Source: Promethearchaeota archaeon | GTDB taxonomy: Archaea; Asgardarchaeota; Lokiarchaeia; Sigyniarchaeales; SOKP01 | Assembly: GCA_019057865.1 (NCBI GenBank) | Contig: JAHLWP010000030.1 | Location: 1-55,277, forward strand | DNA length: 55,277 bases | Reading direction: 5' to 3' | In this document: positions 3,210 to 36,319 of the stretch, piece by piece | Position numbering within the stretch: position 1 is the first letter of the stretch | Layout: each line of letters opens with the position of its first letter | Program-made: the position numbers and the translations under genes | Notes under the pieces: generated by a model | What the model was told of the DNA's origin: nothing | Seen by the model: only the letters and a program-made list of their open reading frames with translations | The model's database searches: none

Positions 3210-3304
3210 TTTAATTATCAACCTTCTTAATAGTTTTATTACAACTTTTTAGAATTATTTACTTATAATTGAAAAAAATTACAATTTATTATAACCTTTT
3301 AATA

Positions 3305-3323
3305 TATAAAAAGGTTTTATTTC
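3305..3323 (-). promoter_or_regulatory. putative BRE-TATA promoter of SCP2 copy 1
   Basis: Minus strand reads GAAATAAAACCTTTTTATA; a 16-bp core is shared with the upstream region of SCP2 copy 2. Confidence 0.45.
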
Positions 3324-3560
3324 GTTCTGTTCAATTTGATATTAAATTAGTTTTATATTTTAGATTAGTAAATATTCTTTAATTAAACAAACCATTACTT
3401 ACATGGAATATAAATATTAAAACTTGTACTTGAAGATTACTATAATAAGATTGAAAAAATAAGTATTTTAAAATATATACAAAGTACTGATTATAAAAAA
3501 GAGATAAAAAAAATAATAAGATTAGTCTTTTAACAGAAATATCTTCTCTAAAAGATTTTA

Positions 3561-10325: not shown

Positions 10326-11533
10326 TTAACTTATTTTAATAGAAATCTTACAATTTTCTTTATCAGTTTGCAAGAGTTTGAGATGTTCAGGTACTTCATT
10401 AAGGGAGATTTCTTTTGTGATTATTGGAGTTAAATCCATTCCAGTTGCCATACAATTTATCACATTTGGAAAATTACCATGCCCCGAATGACCTTGAGAT
10501 CCTACGATGCGAGCTCTCCTTACTTGGAAGTATTCACCACAAACAGGCATTTTTTGTTCTGTTCTAGCAACAATAACCACCGTACTATTAACTGATTTAC
10601 ATTCCCATATTGCATTTTGTATATCATCTGTAACAATATCAGGTAATCCCGTAGCTTCAAGATATAGGGCAGCTCCCTCATTATCAGTATATAGTTTTGT
10701 TGCTTCAACAAAATCTTCTTTTAAAGGGTTGATCACATAATCAGCACCCAATTTTTTCGCTAACGATGCTCGATTTTCTTCTGGTTCTGAGACAATACAT
10801 ATAGCAGCTCCAGCGGTTTTTAAAATTTTAACTGCTGCTAAACCAATAGGACCAGCTCCCAAAATAACCACATTTTCACCTGGTCGAATTCCGCCCCCTC
10901 TTTCTATAACGGCATTGTAAGCAACTGAAGTTGGTTCTACTAAACTACCAATTTTAAAAATATCATCATATTTTTGTTCTAATTTTTTCAAACTCCAGCA
11001 TAATTTTGCTGGTACAGCAATGTATTCAGCATATGCACCATCAATAGAAAAACCAATTTCCTGTAATCGCTCACAATGGTTTGGATAGCCATCACAACAA
11101 GGTTTACATTCGCCACACCAAACCATTTCTTCTACAGTAACCGGTTCTCCTACTTCATAAAGTTTACCAGTTCTTTTATTAATTGCTTGACTACCAACTT
11201 CAACAATTTCACCTGCAAATTCATGTCCAAGGGTGACAGGGAAAGCTGTTAAACCAGGATAATAAATGTATCCATCATCATATGCTTGAGCCATATGTAC
11301 ATCAGAACCGCATATTATGGTCTTGAAAGTTTTCTTTCAAGAATTCCACATCTTTTGACCTTAATTAAAACCTCTTTAGGATTGGGTTTAGGCTTTTCCT
11401 TATCAATAACTTTAACAAAGGGAAATTTCCATACTTGTGACCCTAGATATGTTAATTTTTCATCAATATCCTTTGGTCCAGGTTTAAAGGATGGTTTTGG
11501 TTCCCATTTTGCGGATATTTCTATGGCTTTCAT
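10326..11533 (-). CDS. iolM: scyllo-inosose 3-dehydrogenase (Zn-dependent MDR), two exons: 11533-11344 and 11314-10326; 392 aa after splicing
   Basis: Exons of 190 and 989 nt join to read KRCG-I-CGSDVHMAQ. GHE, CGECKPC...C and GAGPIG motifs are present; strong resemblance to Thermotoga IolM. Confidence 0.85.
11315..11343 (-). other. predicted 29-nt BHB mRNA intron in iolM
   Basis: Transcript reads AU-GUGG-AA|U-UCUUGAAAG-AAAA-CUUUCAAGA-CCAU-AA|U-AU: 4-bp central helix, two 3-nt bulges and a 9-bp hairpin. Confidence 0.85.
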
Positions 11534-11681: not shown

Positions 11682-14531
11682 TTAAATATTCCTATAATAA
11701 TCTCTAAACTTATTTATCAAAGAAACAGCATTTTTTCCATTGTCATTTAAGTAGTATTTAGTAGGGTTAGCCTTAGATCTTGTTCCACGAATAATTCCTA
11801 CATATTGTCTCATTACATCATATCTCCTACTAAAGAAACTTATTATAGATGACTTATCCTTATATTCTAAATATTCCTTTAAACTGATATTGGTAGCATC
11901 ACGTCCTGACTTTGATATCTCATAAATTGCAATTAAAAACTTCATAAAACCATCAGTATCTAAAGTGGGTTTAATTAAAGGGTTTCTAATTGCAGAATCT
12001 ACACAATCAATAGGCGCAAATTCTCTGGTAACACGATTATAATCGTTAAAGACTTGTCTTACATTATTTTTATGATCATAAATTTCATTCAATAAAGGAA
12101 TAAATTTATTATGATGAAGAATTCTATGACAATTTGAACAAATATATCCTCCCTCTTCTTTTTCTATGATTCGGATAATTTCAGAGCATGGAAGATAGTA
12201 TACCTTACTAATGTTAACTGTTTTCGTTTCTTCATTTTTATGATGATAAGTGAATGCGGGTAAATGTTTGCTTATTCTGAATTCTCCACAAGTATGACAA
12301 AATTCTCCATAAAAATATTCTATAATATATCTTTTTTTTAGATATCTAGCAATTGCATCTCTTATCCCTGCTTTGGTGTTTGGGGTTAATCTTGTAGTCT
12401 CACGAAAATTGTCTACTGAAATCCTAATAAGTGCATGAATTAGCTCAGGGGGATAAGAAAAGATATCTTTCCAATTTATAATATATTTAAAATATCCGTA
12501 ATATTTATCTTCTAAAATACGATGATGATTTCTACATATAAGAACCACGTGTTCCGATTCCATTAACTTAATTATCAATTCTAAGAAATGTGGATTAGAC
12601 AAATTTTTAGTAAATAGCTCGTATAGCTTTGAAGCAGTAAAATTATTATCCTTCTCACCAGAAGTGTGGTGAAATTCTAATGCTGTTAGTCTTGAAATAT
12701 CAGTATTTATAATTAATCCTTCTTTTTGGCATTGGGGACACTTACTTTTCCCGTTTTTAAAATATTTACCATTATAAATATTTTTTATGGCAAATAATTT
12801 TAATTTACTTCCAATAATTCTTCGTAAATCTTTTTCTTTTTTCATTCTTTGTTTGTCTGTAAGACTTTCTTCTTTTGCTCGATATGCTCTAGGTGGAAAA
12901 AGATCAAAGTATTTTTCTCTTAAAAAATCGTAAATTTCTCTTATAGAAAAAACAAAACGATATTTTTGAAGTAAATTAATACCATTTTCTTTTAAAAAGT
13001 CAACTAAAGGTTTTATATATACACGTGCCCCAATCTTTTTATGGACCTTACTTGTATTGGCCAATAATTTAATTATTTCAGCTAAATCGGAAAAGAATTT
13101 GATAAATACATCTCGATATTGAGTTACCATATTACGTAGTGAATTAATATCTTTTTTAAAATTGTCTCCAAAATATTCTTTAAAAAATTCTGAAAAAATA
13201 TTCTCCTCTAGTTTTAAAATTAGTTCGGATGTTTCAATCTCTGTATTCTTTATCAATTTGAAAAAATATAAAGAAATAATCAGTCTAATCCTTTTAAACC
13301 CATATATTGCTAATTCCATTCTTGGATATAACTGTTCAAAATATGTTTTGTAGTACCTATTGACACTACTAGGTATTATGTTAGCCAATTTAGCTATCTG
13401 TCTTGTACTAATTTTGGGTACATTTTTGTCTATAAGAGCTACGGTGTAAATGATCGTGCTGGCAATTACTTTAAGATTTACGTTTTTAGGAATATAGAAT
13501 TCATTATTTTCTGCCCTTGAAATGAAATCATCTAATATTTCTATGGATTTTGACCAAATAAACTCTTTTTGGTCTGTTGTACCATCGATTAAATCATATA
13601 ACTTTTTTAAATTATTAATTAATTTCTGTTTAAAATGAGGTATCGAGATAGAAAGTACCATCGTGGTTTCTTTATCTTTTATTGCAACTTGTATATCTTC
13701 TCTTTTTAATTCTCTGCATAAACCAGCTTCTAAAAATTCATGATAAGCTGAAAAAAGCTCAAATGCAGATATCCCTTGCGTTAATATTTCGGGGGCTTTT
13801 CCCAATAGTAAAGTAAAAGTTCCGACGTGGAGGATCTTATCGTATTCTTCTTTAAGTATTGAAAGAGATCTATTTTGTATTAGAGATGCGCTTCCTTTTT
13901 TATCTCTTGAAACTTGAATTTCATTTAAATACTCTTTTAACCAAATCTGGATAAAATTTCGTACTTCATCGGAAAATGGACGCAATTCTTCGGGATTATG
14001 AAATATTTCGGATTTTTTGCGGAGATTTTGCAGGAAATTGGTATATTCCCCTGCAATTTTTTTTAACCCCGAACGCAACTTCTCATGAGGCTTTTTTGAG
14101 GATTTCTCATTTTGAAGGGATTTTCTCTGCTTTCTACTCAGTAATTTCATGTAGCTCCTTGATAATCCGTCCATATAATTTGAAACAATTTGGGCCCCTC
14201 TTCCTAGAGGAGCACAATACATCCAACCACTAATGAAAACCTTAAGACTATTAGGGGCTTTTATTTTGATTAAGTTTATCACACTTTCTGGAGGGAGGGC
14301 TGAGACATCAAATAAGCAAGCATTTATTGCTTGGATAAAACTTCCGATAAACTCATCAACGAAAATCAAGGAAATTTTGTGTTTCGAACATTTTGGATAT
14401 TTTTGAAATCCAAGGAAACCGAATTTCAAAGGTTTGACCTTTTCAAGATGCTTGCATCCAAAATGTGGACAAATTGCGATCCGATCTTCTTCAACCGTTT
14501 TTCTGCTTACTTGGTCGTGTCTCTCGATCAT
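11682..14531 (-). CDS. 949-aa multidomain protein: N-terminal Zn finger, TFIIB-like cyclin/HTH segment, two HNH-like nuclease domains, C-terminal wHTH-like region
   Basis: CPHFGC...CSKH; IASTIIY...ISTRQIAKLANI...VNRYYK; CPQC...LEFHH...ICRNHH; CHTC...FTYHH...ICSNCH. Confidence 0.65.
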   Translation of the reverse strand: MIERHDQVSRKTVEEDRIAICPHFGCKHLEKVKPLKFGFLGFQKYPKCSKHKISLIFVDEFIGSFIQAINACLFDVSALPPESVINLIKIKAPNSLKVFISGWMYCAPLGRGAQIVSNYMDGLSRSYMKLLSRKQRKSLQNEKSSKKPHEKLRSGLKKIAGEYTNFLQNLRKKSEIFHNPEELRPFSDEVRNFIQIWLKEYLNEIQVSRDKKGSASLIQNRSLSILKEEYDKILHVGTFTLLLGKAPEILTQGISAFELFSAYHEFLEAGLCRELKREDIQVAIKDKETTMVLSISIPHFKQKLINNLKKLYDLIDGTTDQKEFIWSKSIEILDDFISRAENNEFYIPKNVNLKVIASTIIYTVALIDKNVPKISTRQIAKLANIIPSSVNRYYKTYFEQLYPRMELAIYGFKRIRLIISLYFFKLIKNTEIETSELILKLEENIFSEFFKEYFGDNFKKDINSLRNMVTQYRDVFIKFFSDLAEIIKLLANTSKVHKKIGARVYIKPLVDFLKENGINLLQKYRFVFSIREIYDFLREKYFDLFPPRAYRAKEESLTDKQRMKKEKDLRRIIGSKLKLFAIKNIYNGKYFKNGKSKCPQCQKEGLIINTDISRLTALEFHHTSGEKDNNFTASKLYELFTKNLSNPHFLELIIKLMESEHVVLICRNHHRILEDKYYGYFKYIINWKDIFSYPPELIHALIRISVDNFRETTRLTPNTKAGIRDAIARYLKKRYIIEYFYGEFCHTCGEFRISKHLPAFTYHHKNEETKTVNISKVYYLPCSEIIRIIEKEEGGYICSNCHRILHHNKFIPLLNEIYDHKNNVRQVFNDYNRVTREFAPIDCVDSAIRNPLIKPTLDTDGFMKFLIAIYEISKSGRDATNISLKEYLEYKDKSSIISFFSRRYDVMRQYVGIIRGTRSKANPTKYYLNDNGKNAVSLINKFRDYYRNI

Positions 14532-15196
14532 CCGGTGATTCTCACCCTTTCCTTCTTTTTCTTTGCTTCGAATTGATCCTCATCATTTAATTCGAGTAAA
14601 CTTGATAATTCTAGTTTTAGTTTGGAGTAACTCTCTTTCAGTTCTCTATAGAAATCTGAAAATAATGAAAAAAATGTACCTTGACTGCTACATAAAATAT
14701 CTGCAATTTTAATCACAACATTTAATAATCGGAAATGATGATGAATTTCAAATTCTGAAAGAACATGAAGTACTTTCCAAATTTCACCACTGAGATATTT
14801 AATCTCTTTCAAGAGGTCTATTTCAAAACGATTTGGTTGAGTTTTAACCTTTCTAAATAGAATTTTTATCTTTTTATCTACTGTCTCCTGTTCTACACCA
14901 ATCATTTCCAGTAAAGATATATATCGAGAAAATAATGAGGAGAGTTTGGATTCCCATTTCAAAATTGGGTCTTTTTTAAGGATGTTGTGGGTCTCTTGAG
15001 ATTTTGAAAATCTAAATCGAATTATAGCTTTTTTATAGTTAAGAAAGGAGCGTAATTGCCTTGAAAGTTCACTTATATGTTCAGAACCTTCAATTGAATA
15101 CCACTCAAGAAATTCCAAATCATCTTCATAATCTAAAGGGGAACTATTGCTAAAAGAATAATTAAGACCATTGAAATTATTACAACTCTTTGTCAT
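14528..15196 (-). CDS. hypothetical helical protein, coupled to the HNH gene
   Basis: 222-aa ORF with a 4-bp ATGA overlap with the 949-aa ORF. Confidence 0.65.
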   Translation of the reverse strand: MTKSCNNFNGLNYSFSNSSPLDYEDDLEFLEWYSIEGSEHISELSRQLRSFLNYKKAIIRFRFSKSQETHNILKKDPILKWESKLSSLFSRYISLLEMIGVEQETVDKKIKILFRKVKTQPNRFEIDLLKEIKYLSGEIWKVLHVLSEFEIHHHFRLLNVVIKIADILCSSQGTFFSLFSDFYRELKESYSKLKLELSSLLELNDEDQFEAKKKKERVRITG

Positions 15197-15569
15197 AATA
15201 ACATATTTTCTTCGTTATATTTAAATAAAAAAAGAGTTAGATTTTTCTAGTTATTCACACAAAAACTTGTTTGACGGCAATTTGCACTCAATTCTAAAAA
15301 ATCATTCATTTCCTTACAGATCGAATATAGATTTTTTTAGTGTTTTGTCATCAGGGATCATTTACCCTCCACAATTTAATTTTTTATATATTATTTAAAG
15401 AGATTTTATTCATAAAAACTGGATAAGTTGGAGGATTTATCTCAAAACGAGTAAAATTCTTTATAATCTTCTTTGTTTAATTTAGTTATCAAATCATCGA
15501 AAGTATGATGAAGGATGATTTCTCAATTGAACTATATTTTATTTACTAAACCATACATAGCAAATTGAA

Positions 15570-15759
15570 TCCCACATCTTTTTACTTTGATTAACACTTC
15601 ATTGGACTTAATTTGGGGTCTATCTTTATCAACAATTTTAACTGTTGGATTTCTCCAAACTTGAGAACCTAAATATGTTAATTTTCCATTAATATCTTTA
15701 GAACTGGGTTTATATTCAGGTTTGGGATCCCATACAGCCGATAATTCAACAGCTTTCAT
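15570..15759 (-). other. iolM: second (orphan or alternative) iolM exon 1
   Basis: 190 nt, the same length as exon 1A; 42/64 aa identical by manual count. Similarity ends at KRCG-I, the splice site. Confidence 0.85.
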
Positions 15760-15836: not shown

Positions 15837-17042
15837 TTATTCCTTACTTTTCTCTTTCAAGAAGAATACTATTATTAAAGCTATAACAAGCAAAATTGCT
15901 TGTATTAATAGAGCAGGCCAATAATCATTATTTATTTTGACATCTTCAAGGCTAAGAATAAATAGAATTCCTCCTATTTGCCCGACCATCATCAACATTC
16001 CAGTAGAGCTTGCTTCTGGCACAGGTTTTGTTATGTCGACAGCATATTCTAAACCCACTGGACCCGCTGAAAGTAAGCCGAATCCTAGTAGAAATCCAAA
16101 CGCAAGTAACATTGTCTCATCATGTGTGCAAGTAATTATAAATAGAGAAACTGTTGCTATAAAAAGAGATATTATTAGTAAGATTTTACGCTTTTTGTAT
16201 TTGTCTGATAATGTAGACATTATAACACATCCTACGATTCCTCCTAATAGCATTAGAGCACCTAACATTCCTGCAAAATCAGTGTCATACCCTCTCGGTT
16301 CTACTATACCTTCAATATATGTGGTAATGGTGTTAAAAATCCCTAGACCCAAGAAAAAAAGAATAAATAGCATAATGAAGTGTTTATTTGTAAACAATTT
16401 CCTTAGACCTTCAGACATTAATACTTTTTCTTCTATTACCTCTCTTGAAGGAGGAGTTGGCGGCTTATCTTTCACAAATACCACAAAAAGTATCACTGTT
16501 ATCAGGGATATAATACCATAAATAAGTAGCATTGGTAATAAATCATCTCCAGAAACAAGTATTGGAGTAATAAACATACCGAGTGCAATCCCCAGAAATT
16601 GAGAGATTAATGCAATTCCCGTAGCTGTTGTTCTTTCATTTTCAGGAAACCAATTAGCTGATAATTTTGTGACTGCGTTTAAAATAAAAGGTTGTCCTAA
16701 GCCAATTCCTATTTGAAATAACAACACAAGTAAATAATCCTCAAATGCAAAAAATCTAAGTAGACCGAAGATACCTGCAATTATAGCTCCTATTCCCGCC
16801 CCTATCCTAAACCCAAATCTATCAATCATCCAAGCTGCTAAGAAAGTTACTGGAATATATACTACCATGAAACTCATTGCCAACAAGTCTATAAAAAGTT
16901 CATCAACCTCATAAAAAGTTGCAGCAACACTTCTAACAGGAGCAAAACTTATCCATAAAATTTGCAATGATATGTTTACTAGCATAAAAAGCAATAGAAC
17001 TACCCAGCGAAATCCATAAACTTCTACATTTTCTTTACTCAT
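15837..17042 (-). CDS. MFS transporter (FLVCR/SLC49-like)
   Basis: About 12 TM helices; YGFRWVVL and ANWFPENERTTATG motifs. Confidence 0.85.
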   Translation of the reverse strand: MSKENVEVYGFRWVVLLLFMLVNISLQILWISFAPVRSVAATFYEVDELFIDLLAMSFMVVYIPVTFLAAWMIDRFGFRIGAGIGAIIAGIFGLLRFFAFEDYLLVLLFQIGIGLGQPFILNAVTKLSANWFPENERTTATGIALISQFLGIALGMFITPILVSGDDLLPMLLIYGIISLITVILFVVFVKDKPPTPPSREVIEEKVLMSEGLRKLFTNKHFIMLFILFFLGLGIFNTITTYIEGIVEPRGYDTDFAGMLGALMLLGGIVGCVIMSTLSDKYKKRKILLIISLFIATVSLFIITCTHDETMLLAFGFLLGFGLLSAGPVGLEYAVDITKPVPEASSTGMLMMVGQIGGILFILSLEDVKINNDYWPALLIQAILLVIALIIVFFLKEKSKE

Positions 17043-35866: not shown

Positions 35867-36319
35867 TCATTTCTCAGGTAAGAATTTTCTAATATTAATA
35901 AATAAATTAGTAAAAGCTATAGTGGCACTTTTAATTTCTTCAGATCTATTTGTTAAATCGCCTGATAATTTATTAGTAAGAAAACCTATGATTTCATTTA
36001 AAGTCAAATTTTTACTTAACCATACATAAGCAACTAGAGCTTCTCCAGTGTCAGCGAGATCATGAGCATCAGCTCTGTTTTTCGCAAAATCTTTCATATC
36101 AGCATTTTTTAATGCATTTGCCAGAATCTGTTTGCTAACTTTAGAACCAGTTCTGTATATTTTATGTTGTAAATTATTTTTAGTCAAAAAAATGGACTTG
36201 GCAACCGAGTATGCAAGATTAACTATTCCGTCTCCTATTTTTGCTAAGCCTTTGTCAGTTCCTATGCTCTTTTGAGATTTAAATCTATTTAAGTCCTCAA
36301 TTAAAAACTCATAATCCAT
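35867..36319 (-). CDS. archaeal RNase III-like domain protein
   Basis: LAKIGDGIVNL and ADTGEALVAY resemble RNase III signature helices. Confidence 0.7.
   Translation of the reverse strand: MDYEFLIEDLNRFKSQKSIGTDKGLAKIGDGIVNLAYSVAKSIFLTKNNLQHKIYRTGSKVSKQILANALKNADMKDFAKNRADAHDLADTGEALVAYVWLSKNLTLNEIIGFLTNKLSGDLTNRSEEIKSATIAFTNLFINIRKFLPEK

Follow-up and report, generated by a model that had tools for sequence, protein, structure and literature searches.

A hairpin behind an orphan iolM exon as the probable left end of an intron-carrying homing cassette in an Asgard archaeon

In the 55,277-nt stretch analysed here (hereafter the window; contig JAHLWP010000030.1 of a Promethearchaeota archaeon of Lokiarchaeia type, assembly GCA_019057865.1), an orphan copy of the first exon of iolM runs directly into a 46-nt hairpin, hairpin B. 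This hairpin likely forms the left end of a 4.25-kb homing cassette at the CG/ICGSD codons of iolM, with predicted cleavage and splicing, and it is probably not the second intron allele that a sequence-only reading of the same DNA had seen in it. The cassette—hairpin B, leader, p222, p949, exon 1A, and intron A—moves as a unit, and comparison of natural alleles shows its boundaries, an empty site in the closest relatives, the same cassette behind different exon-1 alleles, short co-conversion tracts, and a collapsed allele.

Table 1. Features of the split iolM locus, in minus-strand order; positions are those of the window.
Feature	Position	Strand	Basis
MFS transporter gene, native upstream neighbour of iolM	15837..17042	-	Pfam MFS_1; 96.6% nt identity to the G012 copy directly before intact iolM
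Exon 1B, orphan: displaced 5' end of the native iolM; probably the left arm of homology	15572..15759	-	63/63 aa and 98% nt identity to the intact G012 gene
Left breakpoint zone: GAU triplet, also the intron-insertion triplet	15569..15571	-	Empty alleles, cassette copies, L146
Hairpin B, 46 nt, fixed left end of cassette	15523..15568	-	Fold, positional background, identical in L133-L135 and L151-L153
Imperfect complement of exon-1 end (15588-15569), extends the stem	15500..15516	-	Folding; pairing kept in L151 and L153
Cassette leader	15197..15499	-	15310-15197 common to other p222 cassettes
p222, uncharacterised partner gene, coupled to p949 by ATGA	14528..15196	-	43 homologues
p949, probable homing endonuclease	11682..14531	-	Zn/HNH units at about aa 598-670 and aa 745-806; winged helix at the C-terminus
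Exon 1A, foreign replacement 5' end carried by cassette	11344..11533	-	72% nt identity to G012; branch separate from 1B; 96% in L151 copy
Intron A, canonical BHB intron of 29 nt that closes the cassette on the right; putative resistance mark	11315..11343	-	Frame restoration, covariation, 69.3 bits
Exon 2 of iolM-like zinc dehydrogenase	10326..11314	-	Pfam ADH_N/ADH_zinc_N; PDB 3IP1, E 2.7e-143

The product of the split gene is a zinc dehydrogenase whose nearest PDB entry is 3IP1, and inositol-pathway-type genes surround it; the name iolM rests on that match, 3IP1 being Thermotoga IolM. Outside 15310-15197, the leader has no homologue beyond this cassette lineage. An origin of positions 15522-15310 in a GTPase gene was rejected, the match being no better than shuffles, and other short matches, together with a 23-nt match at window position 36033, look like AT-rich chance. 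A scan for sigma-70 promoters and terminators, not built for archaea, found nothing above shuffles. About 20 nt upstream of exon 1A lies a short perfect inverted repeat (11568-11553, 7-bp arms), possibly an operator, which is absent from loci L037 and L138.

Among 70 family genomes with the gene, only that of the window has two exon-1 copies. The closest relatives of exon 1B, genomes G012 (98% nt identity) and G088 (95%), both have the MFS gene followed directly by an intact iolM with no insert, and their iolM fronts are only 71-72% identical to exon 1A; in the tree, exon 1B groups with them at 100/99 support, and exon 1A falls on a separate branch. Exon 1B is native and everything from there to exon 2 foreign, and hairpin B, which had been assigned to exon 1B as its own intron allele, travels with the cassette. 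Because the intact G012 and G088 alleles carry a front of exon-1B type, the insertion must extend from the GAU triplet to the end of intron A. Both alleles match the window up to 15572 and have A at 15571, where all cassette copies share G. An independent orphan exon 1, in locus L146, breaks off at this triplet too; a convergent p949 relative lies 25 nt away, and no anchored hairpin is present. The empty alleles and this second orphan place the breakpoint within the triplet, not at the GA/CCAU boundary proposed earlier. The Gly wobble base is G in both independent orphans, compared with two of 31 intact alleles, which the homing model leaves unexplained. Further downstream, beyond about nt 160 of exon 2 (11154-10326), about 7% of sites differ from G012 and G088, whereas in exon 1B and in the first part of exon 2 the figure is about 2%; we read this stretch as a further recombination tract.

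The hairpin itself is as first described: on the minus strand, GUGG (15575-15572) and GAU (15571-15569) lead into the 46 nt (15568-15523), which open with UC, close with GA, and are followed by GAAA. The junction with exon 1B is letter-for-letter identical in three other assemblies (L133-L135), and is therefore not a misassembly. RNAfold reproduced the fold as drawn, at -8.0 kcal/mol (z -2.29, with 8 of 200 shuffles equally good). Folding 15575-15515, the check proposed with the original claim, gave a z of -1.94, so that the hairpin alone is just modestly stable; intron A, by comparison, reaches a z of -4.39. The opposite strand folds to only -2.2 kcal/mol. Starting from a given anchor base, six Watson-Crick closing pairs occur at 3.6% of intergenic positions, and six such pairs plus -8 kcal/mol at 0.2%, thresholds that were picked after hairpin B had been seen. 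With a background of 0.2-3.6%, the exact position of the hairpin after GUGG-GAU is unlikely by chance.

Relatives with hairpin inserts at this codon do exist, as the sequence-only reading would expect: 11 carry inserts of 29-30 nt at the same iolM site as intron A. All 12 introns seen at this site (site 1) are 29-30 nt long, with a 9-bp covarying stem and a bulge that begins with AA (AAU or AAA). Compensatory changes affect five of the nine stem pairs, 97% of stem cells are paired across the 12 alleles, and none of 500 shuffles showed covariation as high, every slid control also being lower, in a test that related sequences inflate. The closing pairs are U-A in 12 of 12 alleles and C-G in 10 of 12, and seven of the 12 have a G-A mismatch in the central helix. 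In intron A, two 3-nt bulges surround a 4-bp helix, the canonical BHB arrangement, and excision at the BHB cut points yields a 392-aa frame with the zinc-binding motif CGICGSD; the intron scores 69.3 bits on a family covariance model that was built with intron A included. The genome of the window encodes two EndA genes and one RtcB, and we regard intron A as a canonical BHB intron, presumably spliced by EndA/RtcB. An intron family at this codon is thus real on the evidence of the 11 relatives and the compensated stem pairs, and hairpin B, once offered as its independent support, provides no such proof.

The site-1 intron model, a narrow one, found no second intron in the genome of the window. 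Elsewhere in iolM, 30-nt hairpin inserts occupy two further sites, after codon 68 (GSD/VH) and codon 337 (Q/GHSGH), in loci L044-L047 (genomes G066, G061, G070, and G071), with both present in G061. In L047, where iolM has the insert after codon 337, a displaced copy of its last 44 codons (3273-3404) follows about 900 nt behind the gene and probably marks a cassette of the 3'-replacing kind. ARAGORN made just 30 tRNA calls in genome G000, many with introns and several apparently with more than one or at non-canonical positions. An apparently split iolM in G042 was discarded, being an overlap between two contigs and not an insertion.

Hairpin B does have an inner stem directly after a 3-nt bulge, with six Watson-Crick pairs from 15568. 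In length, stem, bulge, and model score, it departs from the site-1 family (29-30 nt, 9-bp stem, AA-start bulge): the hairpin is 46 nt long as opposed to 22-23 nt, and the bulge before it is GAU as opposed to AAU or AAA in 12 of 12. Run against the family covariance model, as the original claim had suggested, it scored 11.7 bits (E 1.2) on exon flank only, compared with 69.3 bits for intron A. Nor does a 4-bp central helix form, since the GAAA that follows cannot pair with GUGG, and pairing with UCAU, the nearest candidate beyond it, would take an additional bulge of 4 nt. No exon 2 follows hairpin B in any of seven copies, and its removal joins no exons into frame. The proposed search for exon 1 and hairpin B joined to CCAU and exon 2 returned no allele; none of 29 short exon-1 products, none of 161 genomes from the class, and none of the JGI metagenomes searched (with a gap of 22-52 nt) yielded an intact hairpin-B intron, and searches wide enough for a 53-nt intron returned just the short 29-30-nt type. 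Every short exon-1 product with a hairpin-B tail that could be traced to DNA leads into the cassette.

Hairpin B could nonetheless be what is left of an older BHB intron, unrelated to the others, that lost its 3' half when p222, p949, exon 1A, and intron A first joined it and that now serves as the left end of the cassette. Its exact start behind half a helix of 4 nt and a bulge of 3 nt, at the 0.2-3.6% background given above, would fit such an origin, as would its UC...GA closing pairs, the commonest in the site-1 family, the G-U pairs that favour the sense strand (-8.0 as opposed to -2.2 kcal/mol), and cbf5 introns of up to 44 nt (PMC2738675). Yet the stump implies an intron of 53 nt where 12 of 12 measure 29-30 nt, and a GAU bulge where 12 of 12 have AA[U/A], with a background score on the covariance model; no intact allele turned up in any of the three collections searched; and an intron-bearing allele should have resisted the nuclease. 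This origin also leaves unaccounted for both an extra pairing with the exon end, described below, and the hairpin-free junction of L146. We consider it unlikely, and compatible with the homing model for the cassette.

The extra pairing carries the stem past its earlier drawing: positions 15516-15500 pair with the last 20 nt or so of exon 1B, giving a 91-nt structure of -19.6 kcal/mol (z -3.28). The exon-end duplex (-14.8 kcal/mol) is matched by 0.2% of intergenic 30-mers and 0.5% of shuffles in a post hoc test, and the extended pairing persists in L151, where an A-U pair has become G-U, and in L153. Copies of the hairpin, always followed by the same leader, are all identical and offer no variation for covariation. 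On balance, we favour an origin as a template-switch scar or as structured donor DNA at the founding junction, possibly kept for burial of a half-site. For a scar, the cut exon end would have annealed to donor DNA complementary to it (15516-15500) and changed template after copying a short stretch in inverted orientation, the hairpin arms having drifted since; hairpin B may now be kept because it buries the GUGG-GAU half-site of the orphan. The arms are only about two-thirds complementary, as opposed to perfect in a fresh template-switch scar, which counts against that origin. It is improbable that hairpin B arose simply by chance, from AT-rich donor DNA that happened to fold and became attached where the gene was cut: z values of just -1.9 to -2.3, the post hoc thresholds, and the evidence from L146 that no hairpin is needed would all suit chance, which would have to produce two adjoining features, each with a background of 0.2-3.6%.

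Other copies of the cassette bear on its mobility. In L151 and L152, the hairpin and leader (99.5%), p222 (99.5%), p949 (99.2%), and intron A (100%) are nearly identical or identical to the window, whereas exon 1 is just 75% identical to exon 1B and a different transporter gene lies upstream; the last 33 nt of this orphan exon have a single mismatch to exon 1B. Because the right flank of L151 is also near the window (94-97%), the pair shows a sharp left boundary and not the direction of transfer. In L153, the orphan exon is a mosaic, 100% identical to 1B over nt 1-99 and 91% L151-like over nt 100-189, followed by the same hairpin. On the other side of the site, L039, which has p949 and another intron allele, differs from the window at nine positions in the first 38 nt of exon 2 and at one in the next 120. 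These mosaics are short co-conversion tracts, as expected from break repair at the intron site. Locus L154 (GCA_019057915.1) consists of the MFS gene, the front of 1B, a crossover in a 13-nt shared block, the rear of 1A, and intron A; its spliced frame is open (392 aa), hairpin B and both cassette genes are gone, and it is the collapse product, which keeps just intron A.

Across relatives, p949 lies directly upstream of iolM in four of 11 intron-bearing cases and in none of 31 without a site-1 intron (Fisher p 0.003, kin not being independent), and L138, found via p222, is a further case of a p949-type cassette upstream of an intron-bearing iolM. Locus L037 (1164-1298) resembles a deletion derivative of the L138 allele that keeps the last 45 nuclease codons and the intron. 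An HSP20 gene lies between iolM and a TIM-barrel gene in L151 (7644-8237) and L154 (1480-2079) and is absent there in the window. A loose scan for BHB motifs around further copies of the cassette returned too much background to be of use.

What drives the cassette is probably p949. Its partner p222 has no Pfam or PHROG match; a long open reading frame follows its homologues in six of six looked up, and is p949-like where tested. The p949 protein has no Pfam match and matches PHROG 2255, phage HNH endonucleases, at E 1.5e-9 for unit 2 and 0.02 for unit 1. Its Cys, His, and Asn metal ligands are invariant across 19 relatives and include the His/Asn/His and zinc Cys pairs of a beta-beta-alpha-metal nuclease, and its Atlas neighbours are viral, with one set 18% PF01844. 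An AF2 model (pLDDT 89) gave a C-terminal wHTH match (Z 9.6, rmsd 2.3, 84 aligned); the lists from fold searches were filled by winged-helix matches, and a single-domain model of the nuclease reached a pLDDT of 37. From these features, we predict a homing endonuclease with two Zn/HNH units and a winged helix, its activity and target being inferred.

Relatives of p222 and p949 are also found at places other than iolM and next to genes that lack introns, so that neither the target nor the link to an intron holds for the whole family. One such case (L142:4265-4690 and L143:140-1756) comprises a full amidohydrolase gene, p222, a split p949 relative, and an 81%-identical orphan 3' fragment, with no intron; because a p949 relative here flanks a displaced intronless gene end, the family would appear to work without introns as well. 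Two p949 relatives share one inositol cluster in L146 (145-3647 and 6723-8003), one behind iolG and the other convergent with the orphan iolM exon 1. Further relatives of p222 and p949 are found on contigs C23, C58, C65, C83, and C87 of G000; the C58 copy retains the N-terminal 285 aa only, fused to another C-terminus, and the C87 copy, judged by eye, abuts a truncated sugar-isomerase-like gene piece.

If p949 were instead a regulator or defence protein, the block might be passive cargo of ordinary recombination and not the work of a site-specific homing nuclease. The lack of a Pfam match, the several p949 paralogues elsewhere in the genome, and a structure search that recovered just the winged helix would agree with this, but the orphan exons of two independent loci break off at one and the same triplet, tracts of co-conversion begin at the intron site on both sides, a displaced 3' fragment lies in mirror image beside another p949 relative (L142/L143), and p949 has its PHROG HNH match; we hold passive transport to be quite unlikely. 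Least probable is that the whole 4.25-kb cassette is a giant BHB intron, with GUGG-GAU of exon 1B pairing with CCAU-AAU at the end of intron A and 1B acting as an alternative first exon to exon 2, for while its ends lie in exact intron register, the 1B-exon 2 product is an open 392-aa frame, and homing nucleases do lie inside archaeal rRNA BHB introns (PMC2738675), the inner helix has at most 2 bp, the long-range duplex reaches only -6.1 kcal/mol without BHB formation as opposed to -14.6 for local intron A pairing, the extended stem buries the 5' half-site, and L050, L040, and L138 carry cassette and intron without any orphan exon.

Under the homing model that we prefer, p949 would cut an intron-less iolM at the intron site, and the break would be repaired from a cassette-bearing copy, with exon 2 as the right arm and the orphan exon 1 as the left arm, so that the recipient's own exon 1 becomes the orphan. 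Splicing of exon 1A, intron A, and exon 2 by EndA/RtcB would keep the gene functional, and intron A would hide the cut site in DNA, acting as a resistance mark. Later recombination between the two exon-1 copies could then delete the nuclease and leave an intron-bearing gene. A wider version is tentative: in an Asgard family of p222/double-HNH cassettes, micro-introns might serve as cut-site immunity, and the cassettes, which would invade, displace a gene end, collapse, and leave an intron, might be a main route by which BHB introns enter and spread through protein genes, with hairpin B and its extended stem as a selected RNA element that prevents mis-splicing of the orphan half-site.

These observations address how short protein-spliced introns, too small for a nuclease, enter archaeal coding genes. 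Among the natural alleles of the locus and its relatives, every stage of one route is represented, from the empty site through invasion and co-conversion to collapse with just the intron left, which suggests one way in which tRNA-type introns spread into archaeal protein genes, names a candidate enzyme, and narrows its target to a few bases. Hairpin B marks the end of the element, and the weight lies in the cassette and the allele series more than in the hairpin. Asgard archaea are the archaeal lineage closest to eukaryotes, and gain of mRNA introns there is of special interest. In the literature searched, no description of a cassette of this kind from Asgard archaea turned up, and cbf5 alone was established as an archaeal coding sequence that is spliced.

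Among known systems, intron A resembles the cbf5 pre-mRNA BHB intron of Crenarchaeota in being short, of EndA type, within coding sequence, and too small for a nuclease, and differs in its linked nuclease cassette, none being reported for cbf5 in excerpts of PMC2738675; hairpin B, without a 3' helix and bulge, is not a working member of that class. The closest likeness to the arrangement of the cassette as a gene-end replacement is found in the yeast WHO elements at FBA1 (Coughlan et al. 2020, PMC7282813), where the displaced orphan fragment is a homology arm in the model of that paper. Both combine a free-standing nuclease, a replacement gene end, and displacement of the recipient's own end as an orphan; in both, the fragments share one position (their start in WHO, their end in the iolM orphans of the window and L146), close kin have empty alleles (here G012 and G088), and flanks are co-converted (here L153, L151, and L039). 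The iolM cassette replaces the 5' end and WHO the 3' end; p949 combines two HNH units with a winged helix and has a partner gene coupled to its own, as opposed to a LAGLIDADG intein-zinc finger nuclease in WHO; putative resistance comes from a BHB micro-intron and not from base changes; and host and target are an archaeon and iolM, not yeast and FBA1, with cleavage by p949 a prediction. Fungal mitochondrial gene hybrids (Allomyces atp6; Glomus atp6, atp9, cox2, and nad3; PMC3630166) likewise have a mobile nuclease reading frame that brings a foreign gene end and a displaced native end nearly identical to that of the closest relative, but there the C-terminal end is the one exchanged, the nucleases are of LAGLIDADG or GIY-YIG type, and a BHB intron is absent. 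In collaborative homing of phages (PMC2988022, PMC10448857), a nuclease encoded outside the intron cuts at the intron insertion site, so that its gene and an ORF-less group I intron are acquired together, as we suppose for the cassette; here, however, the intron is a 29-nt protein-spliced BHB intron and not a ribozyme, exon 1 is present twice once the element has entered, and collapse can leave an allele with nothing but the intron. The iolM cassette is not a member of the WHO family proper, of the gene hybrids, or of collaborative homing, from which it differs in nuclease, host, polarity, and intron type. By analogy, it would work like a WHO element or fungal gene hybrid turned to the 5' end and combined with phage-style collaborative homing.
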